Virus record (IMG/VR): IMGVR_UViG_3300049003_000001
Span: 13,660-77,659 of that record
Source of the DNA: a virus
Lineage: Duplodnaviria > Heunggongvirae > Uroviricota > Caudoviricetes
Length of the DNA stretch: 64,000 bases
Strand: one strand, 5' to 3'
The notes under the pieces were generated by a model. The model was given only the letters and a program-made list of their open reading frames with translations. It did no database searches and was not told the origin of the DNA. Each line of letters opens with the position of its first letter. Positions within the stretch are counted from its first letter, which is position 1. Positions 45,862-60,048 of this stretch are shown piece by piece. The position numbers were made by a program, and so were the translations under genes.

Positions 45862-45867
45862 CTCTGC

Positions 45868-46128
45868 ATGGACGTTGACGCAAAGGTTTGCCCGCACTGT
45901 GACACTGACCTGCGGGCGAGCCGGATTCCTCAGGACGCCATCGACCAGGGGCTTTACGGCCCTCCGACCACAGAGCCGAAGTATTACTACAACACCATCG
46001 GTCACGTGGAGCGCGGGGTCTACGATGGTGTGCTCTACTGGTCATGTCCGGCCTGCGGGGGCAAGTGGCATCGGTTCCCGGAAGGTCACTACCTGCGGAC
46101 CCGAGCGGAGAAGTTCGTCAATGCTTAA
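45868..46128 (+). CDS. zinc-ribbon protein
   Basis: CPHCDTD...CPACGGKWH. 86 aa. Confidence 0.3.
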   Translation: MDVDAKVCPHCDTDLRASRIPQDAIDQGLYGPPTTEPKYYYNTIGHVERGVYDGVLYWSCPACGGKWHRFPEGHYLRTRAEKFVNA

Positions 46129-46284
46129 AACGATGGTAGTTATCTGGTGCGACTACACCGACACTAGGTGCATCCGAAAGGTCACCGGGGACACGACGTT
46201 GCGCGCACTTGACTACGCCCGAATGAACGGCTGGTTTATTCAGGGGCATCGCCACCTCTGCCCGTACCACAAGCCGAAGGGGAA

Positions 46285-46470
46285 GTGATGGAGCCGGGGA
46301 TTGGCAGAAAGCGGCTGGCCGCACTTCAACTGATGAAGACGCGGTTGCCGACCGAAGAGTTCGCCGGGCTGACCGAGGCCATGATCGTCAACCACATGAC
46401 CGACGAGCAGTTAGAGGAATTCATTACCTTCATGGCAACCCGCCCGGCCAGAGTTAGGCCGCGAAGGTAA
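46285..46470 (+). CDS. hypothetical protein
   Basis: 61-aa ORF. Confidence 0.25.
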   Translation: MMEPGIGRKRLAALQLMKTRLPTEEFAGLTEAMIVNHMTDEQLEEFITFMATRPARVRPRR

Positions 46471-46673
46471 TGCCTGATCCGCAAATGATTATCCCGTTCA
46501 GCCTCCTGTGGCATGACGAACAGGATTTCCATTATGGTCACTGCCCAATGCCGTACAACGCGGCTGGCGAGGGTCCGGAGATGGATGAGTCCAAGGTCGT
46601 CAAGGTCGTCTGCTGGTGCTGGCGACGCGAGAACTGCCCTGTTATTCCACCGGAGTTGCGCGGCCCGGATTGA
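46470..46673 (+). CDS. hypothetical protein
   Basis: 67-aa ORF. Confidence 0.25.
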   Translation: MPDPQMIIPFSLLWHDEQDFHYGHCPMPYNAAGEGPEMDESKVVKVVCWCWRRENCPVIPPELRGPD

Positions 46674-46790
46674 CCTGTTATACTCATTATGCCCGGCCAG
46701 GAGAAGGCACAGTGGAGCGAGGGCTTTGAAGCTGTGTGATTGACTCAGGCACCGAGTGGGGAGAGTTCCCCCATCCGCCACCGGGCGCAT

Positions 46791-46863
46791 GTCTCTTTAG
46801 CTCAATTGGTAGAGCGGTTGATTGAAGCTCAACAGGTTGGCGGTTCGATTCCGTCAGGGGACA
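46791..46863 (+). tRNA. tRNA-Phe(GAA)
   Basis: Acceptor GTCTCTT/AGGGGAC. D GCTC/GAGC. Anticodon stem GTTGA/TCAAC and loop TT-GAA-GC. Confidence 0.8.
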
Positions 46864-46873
46864 CAGTAGATTA

Positions 46874-46900
46874 AGGGTTGCTATCAAGCAGCCCTTTTTC
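46874..46900 (+). terminator. rho-independent terminator after tRNA-Phe
   Basis: AGGGTTGC-tatcaa-GCAGCCCT followed by TTTTC. Confidence 0.7.
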
Positions 46901-46941
46901 TATGCCCAAAATCAATTACATAGAGACAGGACGTACATACG

Positions 46942-47748
46942 TTGGGTAAGTTCCTAGGCGGCCTTTTCGCCTTCTTTGCTTTTATTCTTGCAATTCTTCT
47001 TTTCATGTCGAGCACCACAATCGGTGCGCGGTCGGTCGGTATTCAGACCAGCTTTGGCAAGTACGTGAACACGCTGCCGTCAGGTCACCATTGGGCCAGC
47101 CCGTTCTCGTCTGTCGAGGAATTCAGCACTCTCACGCAGAACCTTCACCTCAATGGTGGAAATGGTGACGACGAGGGTCCGAAGACGCCGGTTGCCTTCA
47201 AGGGCGGGGCCTCGGGCAACGTCGATGCCACGATTCGTTGGAGGATCAGCGACGACGGCGCACAGAAGCTTTGGAGGGACTACAAGACCTTCGCCAACGT
47301 GCAGAACAACCTCGTCCGTGCCGATGCTCAGAACTCGCTCCGGATTGAGTTTTCCAATTTCACTCCGGTGGACGCTCGTGACGGCAATAACCTGAACACG
47401 ATTATGACGAACGTGCAGAAGTCGCTGGCCGGAAAGCTAAAGAGCTACGGCGTGTCGGTTGACTCCATTCAGATCACGAACGTGGAGCTTGGTCGGCAGG
47501 CTCAGTCGTCCATTGACCGAATTGTCGAGGCTAACGCCAACGTGCAGCGCGCGGAGGCTGAGCAGCAGAAGGCCACCATCGAGGCGCAGACTGCACAGAT
47601 TCGTCAGACCACGCAGACTCCGGAGACCTTGCAGCGCTATTGCCTAGAGGTCGTCAACGCCTGGGACGTGAGCAAGAATGGTCCGCTTCCGGCGACCTTC
47701 AACTGTGGGCTGTCTGAGAACAGCGGATCGGTTATCGTAGGTAAGTAA
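46942..47748 (+). CDS. SPFH/band-7 (HflK/C, prohibitin-like) membrane protein
   Basis: N-terminal TM helix. The central SPFH-like region and coiled-coil IQITNVELGRQAQSSIDRIVEANANVQRAEAEQQKATIEAQ are typical of the band-7 family. Confidence 0.55.
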   Translation: MGKFLGGLFAFFAFILAILLFMSSTTIGARSVGIQTSFGKYVNTLPSGHHWASPFSSVEEFSTLTQNLHLNGGNGDDEGPKTPVAFKGGASGNVDATIRWRISDDGAQKLWRDYKTFANVQNNLVRADAQNSLRIEFSNFTPVDARDGNNLNTIMTNVQKSLAGKLKSYGVSVDSIQITNVELGRQAQSSIDRIVEANANVQRAEAEQQKATIEAQTAQIRQTTQTPETLQRYCLEVVNAWDVSKNGPLPATFNCGLSENSGSVIVGK

Positions 47749-47987
47749 TGAGTAGCTTTAGCGAATCCTTGCTGGACGCTATTCTTGGTTATGTCCAGAA
47801 GCATGTTGACGAGGGCGCTCAGCGAATCGTTTCCTACGAAGAGGAAGAGCGCGCGGACGGTTATTGCGAGACCTGTTACTATGAGTGGACTATCTTTACC
47901 ATCACCTACCTCGGTGGGGATGGATTGCAGAGAGTCTACGAATACTACGGAGACTTCGCAGAATTCGTTCGTGAGTTGACAGACTGA
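47748..47987 (+). CDS. hypothetical protein
   Basis: 79-aa ORF. Confidence 0.3.
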   Translation: MSSFSESLLDAILGYVQKHVDEGAQRIVSYEEEERADGYCETCYYEWTIFTITYLGGDGLQRVYEYYGDFAEFVRELTD

Positions 47988-48005
47988 CCTCGGTTTTGTT
48001 AGAAT
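47976..48005 (+). promoter_or_regulatory. promoter TTGACA-N18-TAGAAT for tRNA island 3
   Basis: ttgtTAGAATagat is the conserved context. Confidence 0.55.
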
Positions 48006-48062
48006 AGATGAGCCGCCGCAAGTACAGGGAGTTTAATCCTTGTGGCTACGGCGGTTACATCT

Positions 48063-48135
48063 GGCCCTGTAGCTCAGTGGATAGAGCGTTTGACTACGAA
48101 TCAAAAGGTCGCAGGTTCGAATCCTGCTAGGGTCA
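48063..48135 (+). tRNA. tRNA-Arg(ACG)
   Basis: Anticodon stem TTTGA/TCAAA and loop CT-ACG-AA. T-arm GCAGG-TTCGAAT-CCTGC. Confidence 0.8.
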
Positions 48136-48436
48136 CTTGCATTAAATAATGCTTTTGTTAGAATTACGCTATGAATACATTCATGGTAAGCGTAATGCTA
48201 CAGGTTGAGGTAGAAGCGTTTGATGAGTCAGACGCGCGTGATGCGGTAATTGACTGCTTCGGAGAAGGTGACTTCTGCGGCGTCGAGGTCAAGGACTGTG
48301 AAGTAACCGATTTTGAATTGCTAGGCTGATGACCGTCACGATCTGGTGCTCCGGATGCTCTGCGGAGCCTGCGGTAGAGTTGTTCGAAATCGAATGGAAC
48401 AACGAATGGGTTTCTTTTCCCGTTGGGGAAGAGTGC

Positions 48437-48465
48437 TTGACACGCGCCCAGGAGAATGCTAGAAT
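48437..48465 (+). promoter_or_regulatory. promoter TTGACA-N17-TAGAAT
   Basis: aatgcTAGAATtg is the conserved context. Confidence 0.55.
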
Positions 48466-48481
48466 TGAAGAATAACAGAAT

Positions 48482-48554
48482 GGCCCTATAGCTCAGCGGT
48501 TAGAGCGTTCGCCTGTCACGCGAAAGGTCGCCGGTTCAAATCCGGTTGGGGTCG
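48482..48554 (+). tRNA. tRNA-Asp(GUC)
   Basis: Anticodon stem TTCGC/GCGAA and loop CT-GTC-AC. G73. Confidence 0.8.
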
Positions 48555-48711
48555 CTTTCTCGGCCAATTCACTACTCGCCATAGTGAACAAGCTCGGGAG
48601 AAATGAGAAAGAGGCTGGATGCGACAGCCGCTACGTTCGTAGCACAAACAGTGAAGATCAGAATTCCGGTGACGGTCTACTCCGGGGCGCTGAAAACCTT
48701 TCTCACATAAT

Positions 48712-48783
48712 GGGTGCGTAGCTCAGAGGCAGAGCAGTTGACTCTTAATCAACGGGTCGGGATTTCGAAATTCCCCGCACCTA
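48712..48783 (+). tRNA. tRNA-Lys(CUU), atypical T-arm
   Basis: Anticodon stem GTTGA/TCAAC and loop CT-CTT-AA. The T-arm is GGGAT-TTCGAAA-TTCCC with a 53·61 T·T mismatch and a near-palindromic GATTTCGAAATTC. Confidence 0.65.
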
Positions 48784-48881
48784 CTCATGGTTAATGTAAG
48801 TGTCCAAAGTACACGGGCATACTGCATTAGCTTCCGTGTACGGATTGGCACGGCGTCTACCTCGGACGATATCGGGGCCAC

Positions 48882-48953
48882 GGGCCTCTAGCTCAGAGGA
48901 AGAGCAGTGGACTTTTAATCCACGGGTCGAGATTTCGAAATTCTCGGGGCCTA
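48882..48953 (+). tRNA. tRNA-Lys(UUU), atypical T-arm
   Basis: Anticodon stem GTGGA/TCCAC and loop CT-TTT-AA. Its T-arm GAGAT-TTCGAAA-TTCTC is paralogous to the 48712 tRNA. Confidence 0.65.
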
Positions 48954-49034
48954 CGTTGCGTTTTTCAGGCGCGCAACTGGTGGAGGACAATCATTTGTCC
49001 CTAGGTTTGCAGATTGTCCTTAACAATCTGTCAT

Positions 49035-49117
49035 GTGTGAGTTGAGCAGGTGGTGCGCTCAGCGGGCTGTAACCCCGTCGTCTACGGACATTGAAGGTTC
49101 AATTCCTTTCTCACACA
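49035..49117 (+). tRNA. tRNA-Tyr(GUA), long variable arm
   Basis: Acceptor GTGTGAG/CTCACAC. Anticodon stem GCGGG/CCCGT and loop CT-GTA-AC. T-arm GAAGG-TTCAATT-CCTTT. Confidence 0.75.
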
Positions 49118-49120
49118 CTT

Positions 49121-49188
49121 GCGGGATAGTGAAATCGGTATCATAGAGGGCTCATAATCCTCAGTTGGCGTTCGAATCGCCTCCCGCC
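49121..49188 (+). tRNA. tRNA-like, anticodon CAU (Met/Ile2?), atypical or degenerate
   Basis: Anticodon stem GAGGG/TCCTC with loop CT-CAT-AA. 6-bp acceptor GCGGGA/TCCCGC. However, the variable-loop-plus-T-stem region is 2 nt too short for a canonical fold. Confidence 0.4.
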
Positions 49189-49204
49189 CCCATTTAGTAC
49201 ACCG

Positions 49205-49234
49205 CCCCAGGTCTCCGGCCTGGGGTTTTTCTTT
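49205..49234 (+). terminator. rho-independent terminator closing tRNA island 3
   Basis: CCCCAGG-tctccgg-CCTGGGG followed by TTTTTCTTT. Confidence 0.75.
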
Positions 49235-49243
49235 GGAGGAATA

Positions 49244-49558
49244 ATGATTGAACTAACTAATACATTTGACAATGAAGTAATTGCTGCCTCATACGCGGGC
49301 GTGACCGTGGCGTATTTCACGGCTCCGTGGTGCGGACCCTGCCGGATGCTAAAGCCCCGGCTGGAAGAGCTAGAAAACGAGAATCCGGGATTGACGGTTA
49401 TCCGTATCGACGCTAGTATTGAGACAGACCTTGCGATTGAGCACCGGGTGATGAGCGTTCCGACGCTTCTCGTCTACAGCGGCGGATATCAGGTGGCTCG
49501 TATCGAGGGAATCAAGCCGAAGAACGTCCTACAGGAGACGTTCGCCAAGTACCTCTGA
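49244..49558 (+). CDS. trx: thioredoxin
   Basis: WCGPC active site. GGAGGAATAATG RBS. 104 aa. Confidence 0.8.
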   Translation: MIELTNTFDNEVIAASYAGVTVAYFTAPWCGPCRMLKPRLEELENENPGLTVIRIDASIETDLAIEHRVMSVPTLLVYSGGYQVARIEGIKPKNVLQETFAKYL

Positions 49559-49566
49559 GGAATTAG

Positions 49567-49965
49567 ATGAATCTCCGTCAAGGGTTTAGAGCCCTCGCCA
49601 ATAACGGTCTGGCTATCGGATCAGTCCTACTTTGCACAAATATGATCGGTGCCTGGCTGTTCATGCTGGCTGAGCACCACTCTTGGCGGGATTCATTCTA
49701 TTGGGCGTGGATTACTTCTCTTTCAATCGGTTATGGGGATATTAGTCCCGAGACGTGGCCGGGAAAGATGATTGCCATGTGTCTCGGAGCTTTCGTCCTA
49801 TACGTGATGACGCCGCTGGTTGTCGGAAAATTTGTCATGGCAGCCCTTGCGAACCAGCACGAATTCACGCATACTGAACAAGAAGAAATCAAGGGGGCTC
49901 TCGCGGGAATCACCGAGAAGTTGACCCTCATGCAGCACGATATCAATATGATGGAGATGAAGTGA
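49567..49965 (+). CDS. minimal K+ channel-like protein (2TM/P-loop, Kcv/KcsA-like)
   Basis: TSLSIGYGD matches the K+ selectivity filter TxxTxGYGD. It is flanked by hydrophobic helices (LAIGSVLLCTNMIGAWLFMLA and MIAMCLGAFVLYVMTPLVVGKFV) with a pore-helix FYWAWIT. 132 aa. Confidence 0.65.
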   Translation: MNLRQGFRALANNGLAIGSVLLCTNMIGAWLFMLAEHHSWRDSFYWAWITSLSIGYGDISPETWPGKMIAMCLGAFVLYVMTPLVVGKFVMAALANQHEFTHTEQEEIKGALAGITEKLTLMQHDINMMEMK

Positions 49966-50474
49966 AGAAGAAGCTAGCCGCCCTGGCAATTGCCGCTCCG
50001 CTAATCGCGGGAGGGCTAAGCGGTTGTGGTGGCGGTCAGTACCACACCGTTGCCGCACAGCAGACCTATTGCGTCGATTCGGCCGGTCACGTGGTTGACC
50101 CGTCGTGGTGCAACGTCGGCAACGTGCATTACAACCCCTCGGTTTACGTTTTCTGGATGGGCGACTCACACGGCCACTCGTACCACCGGGGTTCTACTAT
50201 TCCCCGTAGCTACTACCGTTCGGGTAAGCGAATTAACCCGTCGTCTGCTAGCGCTCGCAAGGCCGCTGGCCTCCCGGCTACCGGCACCGTCCGCAGTGGC
50301 AGCAGCCCAGCTAAGTCGCAGACCGCGCCTTCGCGTAATTCCAGCACGAGCAAGACCAGCGTGGGTGGCTCCACCTCGCGTAGCAGCACGACCTCCCGTA
50401 CGAGCGTCGGTGGCAGCACGTCCCGTAGCTCCGGAGGTTTCAGCGGCAGCCGCTCATCCGGAGGTCGCCGGTAA
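49962..50474 (+). CDS. lipoprotein with Ser/Thr-rich repeat tail
   Basis: Signal peptide plus lipobox LSGC. C-terminal tandem repeat TSVGGSTSRSS(x2) within a low-complexity S/T/R region. Confidence 0.55.
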   Translation: MKKKLAALAIAAPLIAGGLSGCGGGQYHTVAAQQTYCVDSAGHVVDPSWCNVGNVHYNPSVYVFWMGDSHGHSYHRGSTIPRSYYRSGKRINPSSASARKAAGLPATGTVRSGSSPAKSQTAPSRNSSTSKTSVGGSTSRSSTTSRTSVGGSTSRSSGGFSGSRSSGGRR

Positions 50475-50683
50475 TGAATGTTGAATTGCAGACCATCGAT
50501 GGTCAGTTCTTTAGCTCTGATCCGTTCGACAACGAGTACGACGTGAATCTGACCAGCGTGGCCGACGAGCTACGCGGACTATTCACTAGCTGGCGGGAGA
50601 TGGATTACCTCTCGCTGGTCATCGGCGGGCGGGTCCGGTATTTCAACCCGGCCAACGTGCTGTGGGCGGAAATCGTTAACTGA
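50474..50683 (+). CDS. hypothetical protein
   Basis: 69-aa ORF. Confidence 0.3.
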   Translation: MNVELQTIDGQFFSSDPFDNEYDVNLTSVADELRGLFTSWREMDYLSLVIGGRVRYFNPANVLWAEIVN

Positions 50684-51000
50684 TGTTCAAGCATGTTGAC
50701 ACGACCCGTCCGTATCCCGCAACCGAAATGACGACGGCGAAGTGGAAGCAGGTTCCGTGTTTTTGGGTGGATATCAGTGACCTGATTGCTACCCAAGAGG
50801 GCGTGAATTTTCAGCCGCTTATCGTCATCGACCGGGCAATGCGGTACACCTCGCACAGTGGTGATATTCACCCGCACGTCGTGTCCTGGCGGGGTAACCT
50901 ATATCTGGAAGACGGCCATCACCGCACGGTCGGCAGACTGTTTGATGGAAAGAAGACAGTCTTCGCCCGAGTGTTGACCATCGTAGACCACGGAGAGTAG
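50683..51000 (+). CDS. ParB-like nuclease domain protein
   Basis: LYLEDGHHRTVG matches the ParB/Srx DGHHR motif. 105 aa. Confidence 0.5.
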   Translation: MFKHVDTTRPYPATEMTTAKWKQVPCFWVDISDLIATQEGVNFQPLIVIDRAMRYTSHSGDIHPHVVSWRGNLYLEDGHHRTVGRLFDGKKTVFARVLTIVDHGE

Positions 51001-51113
51001 AATGTTTTTCGTATATCTGGCGCTTGGCGTTCTGATTCTGCTCGCACTCTACGGATGGACGCTCCGAAAGAATGCGCCAAACAATAGTCTATTTGATGGT
51101 TGGGAGGATTAAA

Positions 51114-51278
51114 ATGGGATTTACTGAGATTCTTACCCTCATCTTCATCGTGCTAAAGCTGACGCATCAGATCGACTGGTCGTGGTGGTGGGTGCTCTCT
51201 CCGGAGCTTTTCGTCATCGTGCTCTACGTGGTGTTCGCCATCGTCGGCGCGAGCGTTTTTAAGCTTTTCCGCAGGTAA
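51114..51278 (+). CDS. small membrane protein
   Basis: 54-aa ORF with a GGGAGG RBS and two hydrophobic helices. A 36-aa membrane ORF at 51001..51111 precedes it. Confidence 0.3.
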   Translation: MGFTEILTLIFIVLKLTHQIDWSWWWVLSPELFVIVLYVVFAIVGASVFKLFRR

Positions 51279-51281
51279 TTC

Positions 51282-51310
51282 TTGCAAAGCAGTTTGTGGT
51301 CTGCTACAAT
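51282..51310 (+). promoter_or_regulatory. promoter TTGCAA-N17-TACAAT for tRNA island 4
   Basis: gtctgcTACAATt is the conserved context. Confidence 0.5.
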
Positions 51311-51322
51311 TAAAACCACGCT

Positions 51323-51394
51323 GGTTCCGTAGCGTAGGGGAAACGCGGTGGTCTTCTAAACCACTAAACGTTGGTTCGAATCCAACCGGAATCA
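51323..51394 (+). tRNA. tRNA-Arg(UCU)
   Basis: D GCGT/ACGC. Anticodon stem GTGGT/ACCAC and loop CT-TCT-AA. T-arm GTTGG-TTCGAAT-CCAAC. Confidence 0.8.
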
Positions 51395-51487
51395 CAAAGC
51401 GCAAACAGCCACAGCGGGTGACGGGTCATAACCGTAAATGAATGCGCCAGGAGTTAGGGTCGCCATGCCAAAACAAGACTCCGATTT

Positions 51488-51559
51488 ACTCTCGTAGTTC
51501 AGTGGAAGAATAGTCGCCTCCTAAGCGATTGGTCGCTGGTTCGAATCCAGTCGAGAGTA
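51488..51559 (+). tRNA. tRNA-Arg(CCU)
   Basis: Acceptor ACTCTCG/CGAGAGT. Anticodon stem GTCGC/GCGAT and loop CT-CCT-AA. Confidence 0.75.
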
Positions 51560-51742
51560 CGTGTACGTTCCAATCGCCTTTGCCGAGGCGGTTGGCGGGG
51601 ACTAAGAGGGACGGCAATCCTGACTGGTCAATGTGGGGTGCGGCTTGAAACCAAGCCTCTACGTACGTAAGCCGGGGGGTCAGGTGACCGGATAACACTC
51701 ATAACGTTGTCTAGCTCAGTTCGATACTGAGTCACGGTACAA

Positions 51743-51813
51743 GGCACTATGCGAGAAAGGTCATCGACTAGTCTGCAAAACTAGGAATGCGGGTTCGAAT
51801 CCCGTTAGTGCTT
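51743..51813 (+). tRNA. tRNA-Cys(GCA)
   Basis: Anticodon stem CTAGT/ACTAG and loop CT-GCA-AA. T-arm GCGGG-TTCGAAT-CCCGT. Confidence 0.75.
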
Positions 51814-51814
51814 C

Positions 51815-52114
51815 GTGAATAATGAAGGTATGGACGGCAATTTCATCGGCGGCGGGGGACTGTCGCACATCGTCTCCGGAGGTCGAATCTTTGTTGATTC
51901 CGAAGAGCTAACGACATTGTTCTTTATCACCGGGGCGCGGATGGCACGGAGGGCGCACGACACACAGAGCCGAGACCGTGCTATTATTGCAAGCGTCTTC
52001 TCCGATATTGCGGAGAAGTTCGATGAACTCCGCATGGAGCTTCTAAAGCGAGAAATCGAAGCGTCGTTCACTCCGGACGAGCTTACCACCTTGTTTGATC
52101 TAAAGGAAGACTAA
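51815..52114 (+). CDS. hypothetical protein
   Basis: 99-aa ORF starting 2 nt after tRNA-Cys. An internal ATG at 51833 is an alternative start. Confidence 0.3.
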   Translation: MNNEGMDGNFIGGGGLSHIVSGGRIFVDSEELTTLFFITGARMARRAHDTQSRDRAIIASVFSDIAEKFDELRMELLKREIEASFTPDELTTLFDLKED

Positions 52115-52115
52115 A

Positions 52116-52361
52116 ATGGCAAAGGTTACTCCCACCGAGGTTGAGGTTACGACCAAGGTTCCGGGTTACACGCTAGAATTGTCCGACGCCGAGGCGCAGA
52201 CACTCACCCTCGTGCTGGCGATGGTCGGCGGGGATGGGGATAGGTCGGCACGCAAGCACACGCAGTCCGTCTACGACGCGCTAGAGGCAGCCGGAATCGA
52301 CTACGAGTCGAACTTGGACTACCGGCGTATCGAGGGTTCCATCCGATTTAGCACCACCTGA
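52116..52361 (+). CDS. hypothetical protein
   Basis: 81-aa ORF. Confidence 0.3.
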   Translation: MAKVTPTEVEVTTKVPGYTLELSDAEAQTLTLVLAMVGGDGDRSARKHTQSVYDALEAAGIDYESNLDYRRIEGSIRFSTT

Positions 52362-52386
52362 TTTACCTGCCCGCAAGGGCACCTAA

Positions 52387-52719
52387 GGGCCTGACTTGGT
52401 TTCGACTCTTAGTGGACATTGTTAGACGCAGCCGGTCTTGGGTAGAGACCTTAAACAACTCAAAATAATAAATGCAGACTACGACATTGTAGCTGAGGCA
52501 GAGGCCATCACCCGTGAGGCCGCTGCCGCCCTTGTTTCTGCCTGATCTAAACCCTCAGGATTGACAAGCAGGGAACAGTGGACGCCCTGATAACCAAACG
52601 TCCCTAGCAACACCCTAGCACTGCCGTGAGAAATGCAAGACCCGCCGGGGATACGGATGGCTGTAATTCGGATTTCAAGATAAGCTAGGAACACGCGGGT
52701 TCGACTCCCGCCAGGTCCA
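52387..52719 (+). ncRNA. ssrA: tmRNA (SsrA)
   Basis: The 5' end GGGCCTGACTTGGTTTCGAC and 3' end GCGGGTTCGACTCCCGCCAGGTCCA parallel the E. coli tmRNA termini. The acceptor GGGCCTG/CAGGTCC has the G3·U70 Ala identity pair. A candidate tag frame GCA GAC TAC ... GCC TGA reads ADYDIVAEAEAITREAAAALVSA*. Confidence 0.7.
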
Positions 52720-52750
52720 CGTGAGGATTATTGAAAAGGGAATCCTAGAG

Positions 52751-53140
52751 ATGACCGGAGCGGAGACCGCTAAGTGCAAGTCGCTTAGTCTCCGCCATCA
52801 AGGTCTTATGTGCGAAGATTTGGTTGATTGGAAGGCTTACGAGCGTTCCGATAATAAGATGCGCCGTAGGTCGCGCGTCTGGATGATGTTTGATGACGAT
52901 GACCGTCTCCTGAGTTGGGCTCTGGTCACCCCTCGCTGGAAGGCAACGGGGTATGACGCGCAGCTTTATACCAGAATTTCGGAGCGCGGGAAGGGTTATG
53001 CTGGTATCCTCATGAAGAGGGTTCTGGAATACACTCCGACCCCACACGTGTTTCCTCACGACCGAACGAGCGGTGAATTCTTCAAGAAGCATCGTGACAG
53101 TATCCGATACGATAAGTGCAACAGAGGATGGATTGAATGA
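52751..53140 (+). CDS. GNAT-family acetyltransferase-like protein
   Basis: RGKGYAGILMKRVL resembles the acetyl-CoA-binding R-x-x-G-x-G/A motif. The start may be GTG 52721. Confidence 0.45.
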   Translation: MTGAETAKCKSLSLRHQGLMCEDLVDWKAYERSDNKMRRRSRVWMMFDDDDRLLSWALVTPRWKATGYDAQLYTRISERGKGYAGILMKRVLEYTPTPHVFPHDRTSGEFFKKHRDSIRYDKCNRGWIE

Positions 53141-53465
53141 AGCCTAAGAATTACTTTATTGATGGCGACGCAGAGAAGCTAGCTCGCCTAAAGGCTGAAC
53201 TAGACTTCATCGGGCGTGAGTGCGAGATTCGGGATGGCCGTCTAGTCGTATTCGCATTGCCGCAGAAGAAGGCTAAGCCGAAGGGCGGGGCTCGTGGAGC
53301 GCGCCGAGGCCGATAAGCTAGCCAGTTGGTTTGCCACATTCCGCAATAAGCTCCGTATGGAGTACGGTCAGGCGATGGCCCTAGAGGGATTCGACCCGGA
53401 CGTAATTGCCAATGTGCAGCAGCGAGTTGCCACAGAGATGTTGGAGTGGCTAGAAGGTCCGTCGT

Positions 53466-53772
53466 GAGGTGGGAGTGGTGGGCATACGCCGGAATCACTC
53501 TGGTGTGCCTCGCCATCGCCTTCATTGCCGACAGGTATTCACAGAAGAAGCCTGCCAAGCCGGGACGCCATGCGAACACCGGAGAAATTCCTACGGTCAC
53601 TCACAGGCTCGCAGACGACTGGTCGTTTAAGACCGCAGAGCAGCCGGTGGTCAAGCTGACCGAAAAGCCTCCGGTTCCGCCGTTCGCACCGCCTACGGTG
53701 GAGATGGAAGCTATCGATCCGGCCGACTACCCGGACTGGATTTCAGAAATGTTGAAGGAAGACCTTCGATAA
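53466..53772 (+). CDS. membrane protein
   Basis: GTG start. One TM helix (WWAYAGITLVCLAIAFIA). Pro-rich tail. Confidence 0.3.
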
Positions 53773-53774
53773 AT

Positions 53775-53803
53775 TTGACAGGCGTTTTTCGGAATGCTAA
53801 ACT
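53775..53803 (+). promoter_or_regulatory. promoter TTGACA-N17-TAAACT for tRNA island 5
   Basis: aatgcTAAACTagat. The 57102 promoter carries the same TAAACT variant. Confidence 0.5.
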
Positions 53804-53937
53804 AGATATGTAAGGCAGACGGACAAGGCTTTGGCCGGTGAGTCTGGGTGGAACGTGGGAGACGTAATAGTCGTTAGACCACTAAAGCGCAGGTAACAAA
53901 CGGGTGGGATGCGAGTGGTCTAGCTTTACATATTTAT

Positions 53938-54011
53938 TCCCCTGTAGCTCAATTGGCAGTAGCGGTCGGCTGTTAACCGACAGGTTCTAGGTTCGAGTCC
54001 TAGTGGGGGAG
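53938..54011 (+). tRNA. tRNA-Asn(GUU)
   Basis: Anticodon stem GTCGG/CCGAC and loop CT-GTT-AA. T-arm CTAGG-TTCGAGT-CCTAG. G73. Confidence 0.75.
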
Positions 54012-54088
54012 CTTGTGTCAGTAACTCAAATTGATGGATCAAAATACTCCATCTACACCATACCAAGCGGTGAGACTGACACTCATAA

Positions 54089-54160
54089 GCCCAACTCGTA
54101 TAACGGCTATTACTTTGCCTTTGTAACGCAATAATCTCGGTTCGACTCCGGGGTTGGGCT
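54089..54160 (+). tRNA. tRNA-Thr(UGU)
   Basis: Acceptor GCCCAAC/GTTGGGC (perfect). Loop TT-TGT-AA. A C·C mismatch at 31-39. Confidence 0.6.
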
Positions 54161-54240
54161 CCATGAACGCGAAGCACTGGTGCGTAACGTTCTACTTCGC
54201 ACTGGTGTGCGTTGTGTATTATCTGATCCTTTTTCATTAA

Positions 54241-54313
54241 GGGCTGTTAGCTCATTTGGTAGAGCGCTGCTTTTGCAAAGCAGAGGTACTCGGTTCGATC
54301 CCGTGACGGTCCA
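54241..54313 (+). tRNA. tRNA-Ala(UGC)
   Basis: Acceptor GGGCTGT/ACGGTCC with G3·U70. Anticodon stem CTGCT/AGCAG and loop TT-TGC-AA. Confidence 0.75.
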
Positions 54314-54385
54314 CAGCGCGTTGGTGTAATTTCTGCACGCCGGACTCATAATCCGGAGGTCAGGTGAAAGCCCTGGCAAGCTTAT

Positions 54386-54459
54386 TCTCCGGTAGCACAA
54401 TTGGCAGTTGCACTGCGCTCTGAACGCAGGGGTTGGTGGTTCGAATCCATCTCGGAGAG
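54386..54459 (+). tRNA. tRNA-Gln(CUG)
   Basis: U1-A72 acceptor TCTCCGG/TCGGAGA. Anticodon stem CTGCG/CGCAG and loop CT-CTG-AA. Confidence 0.75.
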
Positions 54460-54468
54460 CATAACCCA

Positions 54469-54496
54469 CCCCCGTCCTTGTGGCGGGGGTCTTTTG
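54469..54496 (+). terminator. rho-independent terminator closing tRNA island 5
   Basis: CCCCCG-tccttgtgg-CGGGGG followed by TCTTTTGT. Confidence 0.75.
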
Positions 54497-54525
54497 TAAT
54501 GTAAATCAATCCAAGGAAAAATACT

Positions 54526-55023
54526 GTGAAGAGCACGGCCAAGGTAGTTTACACACCACATGAGATTAAGGGCGGGGGTCGTCCGATCAATCGCCTAGAG
54601 TGCGATATGGAGGATACCCTGCTACACCTAGGCTACGGCCGGGTGGTCACGGACGGCAGGGCCGATAAGGCTCTCGTTCCATTCATGAAGGACAAGCGCG
54701 GGCTATTCAAGCGAGGGCTCCGCTGGGGCACCACAATCGCCGGGCGTCCGAAAATTACCGACTTCGTTATTTCCTCACGAGCCGGTGACCCGATTCTCGT
54801 AGAGGCGAAGATGCAGGACTCACGCGGTACTGCCTACGAGAAGATTCCGTATTCCGTGCTGAATCTACAGAGCACCGGACTACCGTGGGCACTGGTCTAC
54901 GATGGCGAGTACATTCCGGAAATCCTCATGGACGACATGCGGAAGATGAGCAAGGAAGACCTCAACTGCTACGGAATCTATCGCTACGAGCACTTTGAGA
55001 ATTTCGTCCGGTCCCTGGGGTGA
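54526..55023 (+). CDS. PD-(D/E)XK-type nuclease-like protein
   Basis: DFVISSRAGDPILVEAK carries a D...E-x-K motif. 165 aa. Confidence 0.4.
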   Translation: MKSTAKVVYTPHEIKGGGRPINRLECDMEDTLLHLGYGRVVTDGRADKALVPFMKDKRGLFKRGLRWGTTIAGRPKITDFVISSRAGDPILVEAKMQDSRGTAYEKIPYSVLNLQSTGLPWALVYDGEYIPEILMDDMRKMSKEDLNCYGIYRYEHFENFVRSLG

Positions 55024-55268
55024 CGGAGTTCGATTGCGCCGACTGCGGTGTTGACACAAACCTCAATGGCGAATACTATATGGTGAACGACGATATGTGG
55101 GAAACCGCCGCAGAAGATGTGGTGGACGGCATGTTGTGCATCGGGTGCCTAGAGGATAGAATTGGCCGTGAGCTTGAATTGAAAGACTTCGCGGACGTTC
55201 TGCTCAACAACATCGACATGGGTTGGCGCAAGTCTGACCGATTGATTGAAAGGCTTCTAAGAGGATGA
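55020..55268 (+). CDS. zinc-finger protein
   Basis: CADCG...CIGC. 82 aa. Confidence 0.3.
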   Translation: MTEFDCADCGVDTNLNGEYYMVNDDMWETAAEDVVDGMLCIGCLEDRIGRELELKDFADVLLNNIDMGWRKSDRLIERLLRG

Positions 55269-55434
55269 AGGTCGTCCCAAAGCTCACCACGACCAATGTG
55301 ACAAAGCCGCTGGTCAACGGTGTGGGCGAGGTCATAGGTTTCCACGCCGGGGAGGCGGGTGTGTTTTTCCGCGTTATCTGGTATGGTCGTCCGGGCGTAC
55401 ACACGGTACATCATTCTGAGTTGGAGGTAGCGAA

Positions 55435-55722
55435 GTGAATTTCTGGATCATCGCAGTGATTTTTCTGGTCGGTGCCCTGGTAGTTCTCCTGCACCTGATC
55501 GGCAAGCGTCACAACAAGCGCGAGGCGGCAGCGGAGCAGGCGGCGAAGCAAATTGCCACCGGGCATATGGCCTTCGTTCCCGAGGGGCGGACAGAATTCC
55601 TGGGAATTCAGGTCTCCAAGAACCGGCCGGGGAGCCCGAACCCGCTGTACGTCGCGGTGCCCACTCTCCGGACTGACACGGTAATGATGCAGGCAATTCC
55701 GGCGGACTCTCGTCCGTGGTGA
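55435..55722 (+). CDS. membrane protein
   Basis: N-terminal TM helix FWIIAVIFLVGALVVLL. 95 aa. Confidence 0.3.
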   Translation: MNFWIIAVIFLVGALVVLLHLIGKRHNKREAAAEQAAKQIATGHMAFVPEGRTEFLGIQVSKNRPGSPNPLYVAVPTLRTDTVMMQAIPADSRPW

Positions 55723-55822
55723 CCGAGACCCCGTGTGATTACGGGATTCACGTCCTCTGCTGCCACGACTGTCCGTGTGAGTGCCATTCGCCGGATCAGC
55801 CCGAATAGGGTATAATTGAATA

Positions 55823-55907
55823 GGAAGCGTCGCATAGAGGCTTATTGCGGTCGGTTGCTAACCGACTGAGGGTCACACCTCCGCAGGTTCGAATCCTGTC
55901 GCTTCCG
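55823..55907 (+). tRNA. tRNA-Ser(GCU), long variable arm
   Basis: Acceptor GGAAGCG/CGCTTCC (perfect) with G73. Anticodon stem GTCGG/CCGAC and loop TT-GCT-AA. It is preceded by a TATAAT at 55811-55816. Confidence 0.8.
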
Positions 55908-55953
55908 CTTTAGAGTGTCTGCTTTTAAACATTCATGATGTTACAATTACGTC

Positions 55954-56409
55954 ATGACTAAAGCAGCTAAGGAGGTCGCGTACTTCCTAAACAACAGGCC
56001 ACTGTGCTTCCTTAGCACGGTATTCTCGTTCCGAGATGCCTTGCTTGGTTTCGGTCTATTGTTTGGTCGTCCCGACTTCACACGAACCCTCCTGCACCAT
56101 AACCTAGATCAGCTAGGCGGCGCATGGATTTACGGCCTCTTGATTATGATTATTGCTATTTTCACGGGATTTACGGCCGTCCGTGATTACACGAAGTTGA
56201 CTCAGCTTGGCCTCCGCGTGCAGTCGTGGTTCTGGCTATTCGCATGCGTCAGTTACCTCATCAACGGTAATTATCTCCTGGCGTCGGTCTGGTTCTTTAT
56301 GGCTAGCCTGCCCTCCGGATACATTGCCTTTTACTACAAGTACACCCCCATTTGGGAATCACCTAAGCGCGAGTGGCGTGCAAGGTATGGATTGGAAGAA
56401 ATTAGATGA
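55954..56409 (+). CDS. multi-pass membrane protein (4 TM)
   Basis: Four hydrophobic helices. 151 aa. Confidence 0.35.
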   Translation: MTKAAKEVAYFLNNRPLCFLSTVFSFRDALLGFGLLFGRPDFTRTLLHHNLDQLGGAWIYGLLIMIIAIFTGFTAVRDYTKLTQLGLRVQSWFWLFACVSYLINGNYLLASVWFFMASLPSGYIAFYYKYTPIWESPKREWRARYGLEEIR

Positions 56410-57104
56410 CTACCCCGACCCCAGGTCCGTTCATTACCTCGCAGGATCAGTACGACGCCAAGAGTGAGCACCCGTTTGATATTGGTCAGATGAAGTTGGC
56501 TAACCTCAACTTCAATATGAATATGACCGACGCCGAGTTGCGTGCGCTTGCTGAGCAGGCAATTGTTCTGCGGGACAGGTACAAGGCGTGGGAGGAATTC
56601 TACACAGACTTCACCTTCCGCAAGGCGCGTCTATTCGGCTTTGACGCCGTTATGAGCAACTTGGACGTGGTTCAGGTGGCAGCAGAGCTTGGCACGACAG
56701 TGGCAAAGCTGGCAGCGTCGATGGGTGGCCGTGCGAGCGCTGAGCGTGCCCGTATTGCTGTATTGCAGCAGTATTGGGACACCGGGCAGCTTCCGGTGGG
56801 TGACGTGCTCACCGAGACGGTTATTCCGTCCGCCGGATTCACGATGCAGCCGAACGCTACGTTCGCCCCGGCCTACGTCATCTTCACGAATAAGTCAACC
56901 AACGGTTCGTCTCAGTTCTTGTGGGATTTCGGAGACGGGCAGACCTCTACCGAGGCCAACCCGATTCACACCTACAATGACAACGGCACGTATACTATTA
57001 CGTTGAAGGCTCGCAACACGGCGGGGTGGAGTTCGGTTGTTTCAAAGGTTCTCACCCTAGCGCCGCTGGTGGTTCCTCCGGATTCGCCACCGATCATGGC
57101 TTGA
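56406..57104 (+). CDS. PKD-domain protein
   Basis: The C-terminal segment WDFGDGQTSTEANPIHTYNDNGTYTITLKARN is a PKD consensus. Confidence 0.6.
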   Translation: MTTPTPGPFITSQDQYDAKSEHPFDIGQMKLANLNFNMNMTDAELRALAEQAIVLRDRYKAWEEFYTDFTFRKARLFGFDAVMSNLDVVQVAAELGTTVAKLAASMGGRASAERARIAVLQQYWDTGQLPVGDVLTETVIPSAGFTMQPNATFAPAYVIFTNKSTNGSSQFLWDFGDGQTSTEANPIHTYNDNGTYTITLKARNTAGWSSVVSKVLTLAPLVVPPDSPPIMA

Positions 57105-57129
57105 CGAATTCCGCGAAGCTGTGCTAAAC
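57102..57129 (+). promoter_or_regulatory. promoter TTGACG-N16-TAAACT
   Basis: gtgcTAAACTagatttatc is nearly identical to the 53791-53810 and 41751-41765 contexts. Confidence 0.5.
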
Positions 57130-57165
57130 TAGATTTATCAACGGGGAGACAACGAAGTCTCCTTA

Positions 57166-57238
57166 TGGCCCTGTATTCCAACGGTAGAGAAAGTGGATTC
57201 AAAACCCATACAGTGTCGGTTCGAATCCGACTAGGGCT
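57166..57238 (+). tRNA. tRNA with anticodon CAA (Leu anticodon on a class-I short-variable-arm body)
   Basis: Acceptor GGCCCTG/TAGGGCT. Anticodon arm GTGGA-TT-CAA-AA-CCCAT with an A·C at 31-39. T-arm GTCGG-TTCGAAT-CCGAC. A73. Confidence 0.55.
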
Positions 57239-57348
57239 ACGTGGATAGTTGCAACTGTCCAAAGAAGTGTTGGGGTGCGATACCCAATCGAGTAAACAAC
57301 ACTTTCCAATGAAAGGTGCAGTCATCCGGGGACTGCATGCTTTCACAT

Positions 57349-57429
57349 GCCCGTGTGGTGGAATGGCAGACACGCGTGCCTTAGGAGCACGTACCGCAAG
57401 GTGTGCAGGTTCAAGTCCTGTCACGGGTA
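57349..57429 (+). tRNA. tRNA-Leu(UAG), long variable arm
   Basis: Acceptor GCCCGTG/CACGGGT. Anticodon stem CGTGC/GCACG and loop CT-TAG-GA. A 13-nt variable arm. T-arm GCAGG-TTCAAGT-CCTGT. Confidence 0.75.
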
Positions 57430-57430
57430 C

Positions 57431-57847
57431 ATGGCGTATACCTCGAAAGAGCAATACGAAAGAGTTTACTACGGTAGAAAGAACGGTTATCTACAGTATC
57501 TAGGTGGCAAGTGTGCAGTCTGTGGGTCGTCCGACGATCTAGAGTTTGACCACATTGACTGGCGGACTAAAGACTTTGGTATTATGAGAAAGTGGTCCGC
57601 CGCAGATCAGGCCCAGGTGTATAGAGAGCTTGACAAGTGTCAGTTGCTTTGTGTTGAGCACCACGCCGAGAAGACCAGCAAGGACATTAGCCAGCAGAGG
57701 TCGGAGCAAATCAAGCCGATCAATCACGGCAAGATGTACGCATGGCAAAAGCGCAAGTGTCGCTGTGACATTTGCTCCGAGGCGCGTCAGGCATTCTATG
57801 ACGCCAGAAACGAAAGGCGCAGAAATGGCAATGTTGTTTCGCGTTGA
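57431..57847 (+). CDS. HNH endonuclease
   Basis: CAVCG...EFDHIDW...N...LLCVEHHAEKT. Its ATG is 2 nt after tRNA-Leu. Confidence 0.65.
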   Translation: MAYTSKEQYERVYYGRKNGYLQYLGGKCAVCGSSDDLEFDHIDWRTKDFGIMRKWSAADQAQVYRELDKCQLLCVEHHAEKTSKDISQQRSEQIKPINHGKMYAWQKRKCRCDICSEARQAFYDARNERRRNGNVVSR

Positions 57848-58190
57848 GAACCCGTTCACTAAGGCCGGGCTCTGGTACAGCGAGACCGGGAAGTACACCG
57901 GAATCGTGACCAAGATGGAGAATTACCGAAACAAAGACCTTCCGATGGCCCACGAGGACTGCATGGCCGGTGGCTGGCACTCCGCTGTGGATAACTTGGA
58001 CGACTTGAAGCAGTGGTTCAACTTTGAGGAAATGACGGAGCTAGAGCGAACGGGCTACGGCATTTACGCATTCAACGTGGACAGCTATCGGATTGGCCGG
58101 TCGGAGACGGGCATCGAGCACGCAGTGTTTCAGCGAGACGCGGTGGTCGGTGGCAAGTACCTCCGGTTGGACCGAGGGGTTCTACTCTAG
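57825..58190 (+). CDS. hypothetical protein
   Basis: 121-aa ORF whose start overlaps the end of the HNH gene. Confidence 0.3.
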   Translation: MAMLFRVENPFTKAGLWYSETGKYTGIVTKMENYRNKDLPMAHEDCMAGGWHSAVDNLDDLKQWFNFEEMTELERTGYGIYAFNVDSYRIGRSETGIEHAVFQRDAVVGGKYLRLDRGVLL

Positions 58191-58269
58191 TTTTACAGCC
58201 GGGTTATCCGTAAACCTGGCTTTGCTTCCCAAAGGAAAACGGTTCTCAACAAAATACCGGGAAGCACCT

Positions 58270-58343
58270 GGCCGTATAGCCCAATTGGCAGAGGCGTTGC
58301 GCTTAGAACGCAAAGGTTGGGGGTTCGAATCCCTCTACGGCTA
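58270..58343 (+). tRNA. tRNA with anticodon UAG (Leu anticodon) on a class-I body
   Basis: Acceptor GGCCGTA/TACGGCT. D GCC/GGC. Anticodon stem TTGCG/CGCAA and loop CT-TAG-AA. 5-nt variable loop. T-arm GGGGG-TTCGAAT-CCCTC. A73. Confidence 0.6.
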
Positions 58344-58347
58344 CCTA

Positions 58348-58390
58348 GACCCACTGTGCATACTACCATGATGCACAGCGGGTCTTTTTA
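58348..58390 (+). terminator. rho-independent terminator (14-bp stem, one mismatch)
   Basis: GACCCACTGTGCAT-loop-ATGCACAGCGGGTC followed by TTTTTA. Confidence 0.7.
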
Positions 58391-58406
58391 TTGTTTAAGG
58401 ACCGCT

Positions 58407-59069
58407 ATGAAATTGCTAGATTTGTTCTGTTGCGCGGGAGGCGCAAGCGTCGGCTACAAGCTCGCCGGATTCACGGATATTACGGGTGTGGATATCGAGC
58501 ACCAGAAGAATTATCCATACCGTTTCGTGCAGGCTGACGCCCTAGAATACGTACGTGAGCACGGGCATGAATACGACTTCATCCACGCCAGTCCGCCATG
58601 CCAGGCATCCTCCCTCATTTCTAAGGGAACTAATGCTGGTAAGTTTGAGTATGAACAGCTAATTCCCGATACAAGAGCCGCCTTAGAGGCGACGGGCAAG
58701 CCTTATTGCATTGAAAACGTGGCTGGTGCCGAGATGAGACGCGACCTAACTCTGTGTGGAGAATACTTCGGCCTCGGCGTCATCCGTCACCGCTGGTTTG
58801 AGTTGAACTGGTCGTGCGAGCAGCCGCCCCACATCAAGCACAGAGGCCGGGTGGCCGGATTCCGGCACGGAGTTTGGTACGAAGGCCCGTACTTCGCCGT
58901 ATACGGACGTGGGGGCGGCAAGGGCAGCCCTCAGCAGTGGCAGAAGGCTATGGGGATTTACTGGACCCACCTACAGCGGGAGCTAGCCGAGATGCTTCCC
59001 CCGGCGTACTGCGAGTACATCGGCGGACAGTTTCTAAAAAACCTTGAAACAGGGCTTGACGGAGCGTAG
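58407..59069 (+). CDS. DNA (cytosine-5)-methyltransferase
   Basis: Motif I LFCCAGGAS (FxGxGG). Motif IV SPPCQ (PCQ). ENV motif CIENVAG. Confidence 0.75.
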   Translation: MKLLDLFCCAGGASVGYKLAGFTDITGVDIEHQKNYPYRFVQADALEYVREHGHEYDFIHASPPCQASSLISKGTNAGKFEYEQLIPDTRAALEATGKPYCIENVAGAEMRRDLTLCGEYFGLGVIRHRWFELNWSCEQPPHIKHRGRVAGFRHGVWYEGPYFAVYGRGGGKGSPQQWQKAMGIYWTHLQRELAEMLPPAYCEYIGGQFLKNLETGLDGA

Positions 59070-60030: not shown

Positions 60031-60048
60031 TTAGGAATATAGATTAAA

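Follow-up and report, generated by a model that had tools for sequence, protein, structure and literature searches.

A divergent member of the actinophage tmRNA lineage, encoding a long acidic tag, within the tRNA array of an uncultivated virus

Phage-encoded transfer-messenger RNAs (tmRNAs), including those in the tRNA arrays of the actinophage family most closely related to the locus considered here, have already been annotated and published (PMC5764925, PMC4131195, PMC9004378). Phage ssrA genes were catalogued in 2014 from Bxz1-type mycobacteriophages and from Bacillus phage G (PMC4131195), huge phages carry both tmRNAs and SmpB (PMC7162821), and a 2022 survey of 18,146 phage genomes detected tmRNAs in 402 of them (2.3%; PMC9004378). 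A published description of the Stanwilliamsviridae phages gives their complement as “43 to 48 tRNAs, one tmRNA.” The present analysis concerns a tmRNA (ssrA) gene in a 64,000-nt stretch of a Caudoviricetes virus genome (positions 13,660 to 77,659 of IMG/VR record IMGVR_UViG_3300049003_000001; hereafter, the window, to which all coordinates refer unless another record is named). This tmRNA is a new, divergent member of the known actinophage tmRNA lineage. From its identity, structure, homology, synteny, the selection on its tag, and the absence of SmpB, it is very probably a functional ssrA of a large, tRNA-rich, probably lytic actinobacteriophage, an uncultivated and distant relative of the Stanwilliamsviridae. 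Wider interest attaches only to the conserved family of acidic tags that includes its own; the gene is otherwise ordinary and already explained.

A single tmRNA, of the one-piece type, was identified in the window by ARAGORN at 52387-52720 on the plus strand, with the tag ADYDIVAEAEAITREAAAALVSA* and a coding part at positions 88-159 of the gene. The Rfam covariance model RF00023 matched 52387-52722 over its entire length (model positions 1-374 of 374) with a score of 69.5 bits (E = 5.6e-25), above the gathering score of 47 bits. A first-pass annotation, made from the nucleotide sequence alone, had placed a phage-encoded tmRNA at 52387-52719 on the strength of several features, and each of these is borne out. 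The gene begins with GGGCCTGACTTGGTTTCGAC at 52387 and stops with GCGGGTTCGACTCCCGCCAGGTCCA at 52719, both tmRNA-like termini. The two ends proposed to form the tRNA-like domain (TLD) pair exactly as named, with the G.U alanine identity pair G3.U70 in the acceptor stem. An A-rich run (CAAAAUAAUAAAU) precedes a GCA resume codon, from which a 23-codon frame opens and closes with ...AAAALVSA and TGA, and the gene is embedded in an array of 31 same-strand tRNAs. Because the sequence runs on as ACGT (ACGU in the RNA), the tmRNA CCA is not encoded, as is the case for all 31 tRNA genes of the window. The gene order is non-permuted, running from the 5' acceptor strand to the T-arm, which distinguishes it from the two-piece form; likewise, the complete mRNA-like region, pseudoknot 1 (PK1), and the tag open reading frame (ORF) distinguish it from the TLD-only ssrA of mycobacteriophage DS6A. 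Positions 46905-57223, the tmRNA included, recur with 100% identity in a 10.3-kb Logan contig from SRR27584583. The public gene call on this contig (L131) places a 71-amino-acid (aa) coding sequence over the tmRNA (5575-5790, corresponding to window positions 52479-52694, minus strand), which is almost certainly spurious.

To describe the structure, the window tmRNA was aligned using MAFFT with ten tmRNAs of cultured phages (alignment A2) and with twelve acidic-tag tmRNAs (alignment A3). MAFFT mis-registers the 5' end and the variable 3' domain of such alignments; the helices were therefore tabulated by anchor-based extraction from 20 sequences, combined with a pseudoknot search. The third pair of the acceptor stem (P1) is G.U in 20 of the 20 family tmRNAs, no other position of the stem shows a non-canonical pair, and pairs 4 to 6 covary (GC/CG/AU, CG/UA/AU, and UA/AU/CG, respectively). 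The T-stem also covaries, with zero non-canonical pairs. The top of P2 is paired without mismatches in all 20 sequences and shows G-C/A-U covariation at its fourth pair, and a column-pair scan of alignment A2 recovered, with double-sided changes, both a helix equivalent to P2a and stem 1 of PK1. In the same alignment, stem 1 of PK1 covaries (AU/CG/GC/UA). Compensatory changes were evident in both stems when the 20 PK1 regions were compared, for example, GGUC/GACC, AGUC/GACU, UGACA/UGUCA, and CUUC/GAAG in stem 1, and UUGGG/CUCAA, UUGAGG/CCUCAA, and UUGGUC/GGCCAA in stem 2. Downstream of the tag lies an H-type pseudoknot with AUAACCAAA as loop 3. An automatic pseudoknot search located its equivalent at the corresponding position in most of the 20 family tmRNAs; in these, loop 3 is A-rich and the stem 2 sequences are unrelated but complementary. 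The equivalent pseudoknot is weaker or different in Comrade and in the metagenomic relatives L194 and L259. The 3' domain that follows was assessed by single-sequence folding and by inspecting alignment A3 by eye against L238 and L215. The motifs shared across the alignments are GGUUUCGAC, the GCARCY/GGYUGU helix, PK1, AUARAUGC directly ahead of the resume codon, and AUGGYUGU. The gene has all the sequence and structural features that tmRNA function is known to require.

The reading frame of the tag carries its own record of selection. The frame-setting context U(-5) A(-4), as part of AUAAAUGC, is unchanged in 13 of 13 acidic-tag tmRNAs; its counterparts in Escherichia coli are U85 and A86, of which A86, four nucleotides upstream of the resume codon, is the main determinant of frame choice (PMC2481249). 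The stop codon sits in the 5' strand of a predicted hairpin (52541-52545/52555-52559). Variable sites of the tag ORF at codon positions 1, 2, and 3 number 3, 1, and 10 among the window-like tmRNAs (first 13 codons) and 5, 5, and 16 among the BillNye-like tmRNAs (18 codons), and pairwise codon differences are synonymous versus non-synonymous in ratios of 53:14 and 149:91, respectively. Since the changes are mostly at third positions and synonymous, they indicate that the frame is read and that the peptide is under selection at the protein level.

The phages nearest to the window, as judged by tblastn, are ∼120- to 135-kb Streptomyces siphoviruses of the Stanwilliamsviridae, clusters BK and BE. 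With half of the genome visible, the best hits all fall in this family, at 59 to 60% aa identity for the DnaE-like polymerase (Ankus, BillNye, and Circinus) and 36% for a minor tail protein (BE phages). At the nucleotide level, a blastn search with the tmRNA (word size 11) against 50,697 phage records gave no match, and a megablast search with 15 kb around the tmRNA matched only single tRNAs. The relationship of the tmRNA is apparent from its position and motifs. Annotated single tmRNAs within tRNA arrays are found in Comrade, Faust, Gilson, Blueeyedbeauty, Wakanda, Annadreamy, and many more of these phages; the tmRNA of Samisti12 is 267 nt long with the tag ANSKFAFALAA, and that of Circinus and BillNye is 296 nt long with the tag ADNIDAEYEALCAEYALVTV. 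In the Loccivirinae, the order is tRNA-Arg(cct), tmRNA, tRNA-Asn(gtt), and the window has the same order (starting at 51488, 52387, and 53938). In the window, tRNA-Arg(cct) is separated from the tmRNA by tRNA-Cys and two small ORFs. The tRNA-Arg(cct) also precedes the tmRNA in Samisti12, Circinus, Comrade, Faust, Blueeyedbeauty, Annadreamy, Bxz1, and metagenomic relatives, and in the longer metagenomic contigs with acidic tags, the array likewise runs Arg(cct), tmRNA, Asn(gtt). The window tmRNA is homologous to and syntenic with the tmRNAs of >100 cultured lytic phages, and both its array position and its motif series (GGUUUCGAC...GCARCY...AUARAUGC...AUGGYUGU) are those of the Stanwilliamsviridae-type lineage.

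Compared with the Stanwilliamsviridae (Loccivirinae, cluster BK: BillNye/Circinus, Ankus, and Byblos; Boydwoodruffvirinae, cluster BE: Samisti12), the window shares the one-piece tmRNA, the large same-strand tRNA array, the common motifs, PK1, the post-tag pseudoknot with an AACAGAA-type loop, the lack of a phage SmpB, and, with the BillNye group, the long acidic tag. It differs in tmRNA sequence (∼57 to 59% identity in global alignment) and length (333 nt versus 267 to 298 nt), and the window phage has a G+C content of ∼55% versus ∼45 to 50%. The closest relative of the tmRNA is that of L238, at 67% identity, and L230 encodes homologues of the window's RNA ligase (Rnl) and polynucleotide kinase/phosphatase (Pnkp) at 46% and 49% aa identity, respectively.

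To collect further members from metagenomes, a gapped family pattern was used (GGTTTCGAC-N18-26-GCARCY-N28-44-ATARATGC). It recovered the window-like tags ADYDIVAEAEAILAKAALVTV (L202), ADYDVVAEAEAILADASLVSA (L238), ADYDVVAEAEAILASAALATV (L194), and ANYDVVAEAEAILRSADLVSA (L203 and L230), together with further BillNye-like tags in L215, L257, L186, L259, L244, L240, L151, and L205. The window-like tags have the form A[DN]YD[IV]VAEAEAI[LT]..A.LV[ST][AV]; the sub-type ADYDIVAEAEAI... was seen only in L194, L202, L203/L230, and L238, all metagenomic, and in no cultured phage. The BillNye-like tags have the form ..IDAEYEALCAEY.LVTV, and the Bxz1 tag, called by ARAGORN on the Bxz1 record, is ATDTDATVTDAEIEAFFAEEAAALV, ending in ...TDAEIEAFFAEEAAALV. 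In an alignment with 14 other tags, the window tag (net charge, -4) shows the features of the acidic subgroup, namely a length of 20 to 32 residues, an overall negative charge, the core ..AE.EA....A.L[VA], and a C terminus that is small or non-polar. The tag is long and ends in LVSA, as the first-pass annotation described, but it is not unique; the same acidic family is conserved in BillNye, Circinus, Ankus, Byblos, several metagenomic phages, and Bxz1. In most BE and BK phages, by contrast, the tags are short and resemble those of hosts (for example, ANSKFAFALAA, ANSKNASAYALAA, and ANSNFALAA).

Similarity between the acidic tags was evaluated against 5000 composition-matched shuffles. The L202 and Circinus tags share 11 of 20 residues, a value reached by none of the shuffles (0/5000), and the Circinus and Bxz1 tags share 10 of 20 (1/5000). 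For the window tag, the identities are 10 of 21 with Bxz1 in the best ungapped register (39/5000) and 8 of 20 with Circinus (107/5000). Similarity between subfamilies, by this measure, exceeds that of the shuffles. The acidic tags of the Bxz1, BillNye, and window types constitute a single conserved family of peptides, selected at the protein level. When 185,579 bacterial and archaeal species, each with a single genome, were scanned with the family pattern, the only matches were unrelated permuted tmRNAs of beta-proteobacteria and chance matches; because the pattern was designed on the phage family, this demonstrates the absence of the phage-type gene from these cellular genomes and not that of acidic tags in hosts. 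A full-text literature search with the tag strings found no paper in the library searched. The possibility that the tag forms an amphipathic helix was considered and rejected, as the hydrophobic moment at 100 degrees was not above that of shuffles for the window, L202, Circinus, or Bxz1 tags. An identical 423-nt window-like tmRNA is present in L203 (4924-5346) and L230 (9393-9815); its 3' domain contains a large insertion, and its tag is followed by two consecutive stops (TAG TAG).

Searches of IMG/VR beyond this set mostly returned unrelated sequences. Scanned with the family pattern, which fits the window's own tmRNA, IMG/VR yielded no window-type tmRNA, and searches anchored on the adjacent GNAT and Band7 proteins found no relatives. 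Exact scans matched >120 contigs with the 25-mer of the 3' end and 8 contigs with the 20-mer of the 5' end, almost all unrelated. The >120 contigs that share the exact 25-nt T-arm/acceptor sequence (L003-L122) mostly encode permuted two-piece tmRNAs that have only the TLD sequence in common with that of the window; many of these carry long tags, for example, ANADTFDFSAMSFTGNTV...ALAA.

Outside the family, one of the closest parallels is Bxz1 (cluster C1, Bixzunavirus), a myovirus of another family with a Mycobacterium host. Its tmRNA is likewise located within a tRNA array, immediately downstream of tRNA-Arg(cct), with the same acceptor stem sequence (GGGCCUG/CAGGUCC), and encodes a long acidic tag that ends in ...EEAAALV, compared with ...REAAAALVSA in the window, and lacks the last two residues; Bxz1 has a CUA-anticodon tRNA as well (L270, 10437-10509). 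However, the Bxz1 tmRNA is 435 nt long and barely alignable outside the TLD (∼48% identity in global alignment). Bxz1 gp200 (L270, 33907-34248), located between the DNA polymerase and UvsX, is an RF-1-domain protein and possibly an ArfB-like rescue factor; a counterpart was not found at the equivalent position of the window, which is occupied by MazG and an ORF of unknown function. With bacterial tmRNAs (RF00023), the window gene shares the TLD with G3.U70, the T-loop, P2, PK1, U-A at positions -5/-4, a GCN resume codon, a tag ORF, a stop codon in a hairpin, and downstream pseudoknot(s), whereas its 3' pseudoknot domain is reduced to one well-supported post-tag pseudoknot, its tag is acidic and lacks the host-typical ...ALAA end, and no cognate smpB is present in the window. 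Other phages also carry ssrA genes with a proposed role in the upkeep of hijacked translation (PMC9004378, PMC7162821), although many aquatic phage tmRNAs are of the permuted two-piece type and some huge phages (Lak phages) encode SmpB in addition.

A six-frame search detected no SmpB in the 64-kb window, and Pfam scans found no SmpB or RF-1 domain protein among the window ORFs of ∼130 to 200 aa. Among the 68 phage records with a match to SmpB, the listed organism counts include no Streptomyces or Mycobacterium phage. With no SmpB in the window or in the cultured relatives, the RNA would therefore have to use the SmpB, AlaRS, and CCA-adding enzyme of the host.

The carrier is evident from the remainder of the window, where all substantial ORFs are on the plus strand and the G+C content is flat (∼0.53 to 0.58); the coordinates of the tmRNA features and of the surrounding genes are collected in Table 1. 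The Rnl and Pnkp genes overlap and lie directly upstream of the tRNA/tmRNA array, and this RNA-repair pair could mend cleaved tRNAs or the tmRNA. The array includes a CUA-anticodon tRNA (41215-41286, plus strand; 66.5 bits with the Rfam tRNA model) that ARAGORN labels tRNA-Pyl and that would decode amber codons; of the three stop codons, TAG is used least by the likely genes of the window (5 of 57). Small genes among the tRNAs (46942-51000, plus strand) encode SPFH/Band7, thioredoxin, ion-channel-like (Ion_trans_2), and VapB-like antitoxin domain proteins, and Band7 is also kept near the tmRNA in Samisti12 and Comrade. On the other side, the listed GTG start of a GNAT acetyltransferase ORF (52721-53140, plus strand) abuts the 3' end of the tmRNA; an ATG at 52751, preceded by AAGGG, seems the more plausible start. 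No sigma-70-like promoter or intrinsic terminator beyond chance expectation adjoins the tmRNA.

Table 1. Positions of the tmRNA, its structural elements, and the genes of the carrier phage in the window
Feature	Position	Strand	Details and basis
tmRNA (ssrA) gene	52387..52719	+	333 nt to discriminator A; ARAGORN, Rfam, homology to annotated phage tmRNAs
Acceptor stem P1, 5' strand GGGCCUG	52387..52393	+	Pairs with CAGGUCC 52712-52718; G3.U70 at 52389/52716; sequence, fold
P2a, 5' strand UCUUAGU	52407..52413	+	Pairs with GCUAGGA 52684-52690; fold of joined ends
Top of P2, GCAGCC	52428..52433	+	Pairs with GGCUGU 52659-52664
PK1	52434..52463	+	Stem 1 GGUC 52434-52437/GACC 52447-52450; stem 2 UUGGG 52438-52442/CUCAA 52459-52463
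Frame-setting U(-5) A(-4) and resume codon GCA	52469..52476	+	U(-5) A(-4) 52469-52470; GCA 52474-52476; reads AUAAAU, then GCA
Tag reading frame	52474..52545	+	23 codons (ADYDIVAEAEAITREAAAALVSA) and UGA stop 52543-52545
Post-tag H-type pseudoknot	52569..52603	+	Stem 1 CAGGG 52569-52573/CCCUG 52585-52589; stem 2 GGACG 52580-52584/CGUCC 52599-52603
Lineage-variable 3' domain	52604..52656	+	Predicted hairpin 52604-52607/52615-52618; GC-rich hairpin or mini-pseudoknot 52641-52656; weak
T-arm, acceptor 3' strand, and discriminator A	52695..52719	+	GCGGG UUCGACU CCCGC 52695-52711; acceptor strand 52712-52718; A 52719
Tape-measure protein	3093-8831	+	PHROG/Pfam
Minor tail proteins	9229-12489, 13183-15651	+	PHROG/Pfam
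DnaB-like helicase	19289-20518	+	PHROG/Pfam
DnaE-like polymerase	23355-26657	+	PHROG/Pfam
MazG	26741-27232	+	PHROG/Pfam
RecA/UvsX	28167-29186	+	PHROG/Pfam
Large terminase (TerL)	36174-38033	+	PHROG/Pfam
RNA ligase (Rnl)	38630-39691	+	PHROG/Pfam
Polynucleotide kinase/phosphatase (Pnkp)	39688-40647	+	PHROG/Pfam
tRNA array	41215..62111	+	31 genes, all 20 amino acids and a CUA-anticodon tRNA; small ORFs interspersed; ARAGORN, Rfam RF00005
tRNA-Arg(cct)	51488..51560	+	Conserved upstream neighbor of tmRNA; ARAGORN
tRNA-Asn(gtt)	53938..54012	+	Conserved downstream neighbor, then tRNA-Thr(tgt); ARAGORN

Several observations weigh against the favored reading, a functional phage ssrA that relies on host SmpB. 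Of the pseudoknots PK1 to PK4 whose fold the first-pass annotation had suggested checking, PK1 and one post-tag pseudoknot are well supported, but canonical PK3 and PK4 are not evident; the last ∼55 nt before the 3' strand of P2 (52604-52656) vary between lineages and fold into weak predicted hairpins. tmRNA pseudoknots are known to be replaceable (PMC2481249). In addition, the resume codon falls in a weak hairpin in single-sequence folding, and the Rfam score of 69.5 is below the 77 to 95 of cultured relatives. In the family member TunaTartare (L140; NC_070784.1, 80163-81634), only the 3' 72 nt of the family tmRNA are left, an endonuclease VII gene stands where the remainder would be, and no tmRNA is called by ARAGORN; the gene seems to have been lost naturally and is thus dispensable at least in some settings. 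Finally, the window covers 64 kb of a genome of probably ∼120 to 135 kb, and a phage SmpB or ArfB could lie elsewhere in it. Some of these points would also fit an inactive relic or a decoy of SmpB and AlaRS that inhibits the host tmRNA by titrating SmpB, as proposed for the ssrA of DS6A, which is little more than a TLD and resembles a molecule that inhibits tmRNA (PMC4131195): the TunaTartare tmRNA is mostly lost, the window score is the lowest of the three tested, and the 3' domain is poorly structured. Nevertheless, a relic or decoy is improbable, because the mRNA-like region is intact from U(-5) A(-4) and the resume codon through the open 23-codon frame to the stop, compensatory changes preserve both PK1 and the pseudoknot after the tag, and the frame in the relatives changes with a third-position bias that neither a relic nor a decoy would maintain. 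Even less probable is a bacterial host ssrA, the window then being a chromosome or a prophage junction at the host tmRNA gene. Phages do often integrate into ssrA (PMC3029335), and many IMG/VR contigs carry tmRNAs possibly of host origin; however, the entire 64 kb is phage-like, on one strand, and of flat G+C content, with structural, replication, and packaging genes, and phage-like on both sides of the array region. Moreover, the scanned ORFs included no integrase, bacterial tmRNAs are typically longer than this one, and the family pattern finds no such tmRNA in the species genomes searched. Given the phage context throughout and the synteny with lytic phages, a host gene at a prophage junction is effectively excluded.

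A further explanation concerns the purpose of the gene and is compatible with a working tmRNA: the tag itself might be what the phage gains, if the phage tmRNA competes with that of the host and swaps the ...ALAA degron for an acidic peptide that changes the fate of the tagged proteins, through another protease or adaptor or through protection from ClpXP. This is possible but, on balance, unlikely. Divergent phages conserve the acidic tag as a protein sequence, with between-subfamily similarity beyond shuffles in each of the L202-Circinus, Circinus-Bxz1, and window-Bxz1 comparisons; the short ...ALAA tags of sister phages make it a distinct, maintained state; and cellular genomes lack such a tmRNA by the family pattern. 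However, the C-terminal residues of these tags remain small or non-polar (LVSA, LVTV, LATV, and LAVA), and ssrA tag variants with such endings can still be protease degrons. The helix scores suggest no binding mode either, and ALAA tags suffice for many family members.

If the gene is, as favored here, a working phage ssrA, its expression, charging, part in trans-translation, and benefit to the phage can be inferred from established tmRNA biology. The tmRNA would be transcribed as part of the surrounding tRNA-array transcript, given that no promoter or terminator of its own was detected, and would be processed at its tRNA-like ends, with CCA added by a nucleotidyltransferase. Host AlaRS would then charge it with alanine via G3.U70, and the charged RNA would bind host SmpB and EF-Tu and enter ribosomes stalled on truncated, non-stop, or damaged mRNAs. 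Translation would resume at GCA 52474 in the frame set by U(-5) A(-4), appending (A)DYDIVAEAEAITREAAAALVSA, and termination at UGA would free the ribosome. The likely benefit would be that translation is kept going while host RNAs are degraded or attacked during infection, and that ribosomes are rescued when phage mRNAs with non-host codon usage (∼55% G+C) stall. The most economical reading is that the tmRNA, the complete tRNA set, and the upstream Rnl-Pnkp pair constitute a module that keeps translation working during infection; a comparable role has been proposed for phage tRNAs (PMC5764925) and for viral tmRNA (PMC9004378). As the tag is selected and its family phage specific, the fate of the tagged proteins probably matters too, and a phage-specific fate is possible.

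A more speculative proposal, for which the odds seem slimmer still than for the tag being the purpose of the gene, is that the long acidic tag, which purifying selection maintains in at least three actinophage lineages, does not copy the degron of the host but acts as an effector peptide specific to the virus, one that would reroute or protect proteins released from stalled ribosomes. If so, these phages would reprogram the outcome of trans-translation, beyond supplementing it, for example, via a different actinobacterial unfoldase or adaptor or by evasion of ClpXP. The function of the tag is directly testable, as cultured members exist (BillNye and Circinus on Streptomyces and Bxz1 on M. smegmatis). 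With the window, a divergent uncultivated lineage joins the phages that carry their own ribosome-rescue RNA together with a complete tRNA set and an RNA-repair pair, in line with the prevailing idea that large phages shield translation against shut-off by the host and against defenses that target RNA.

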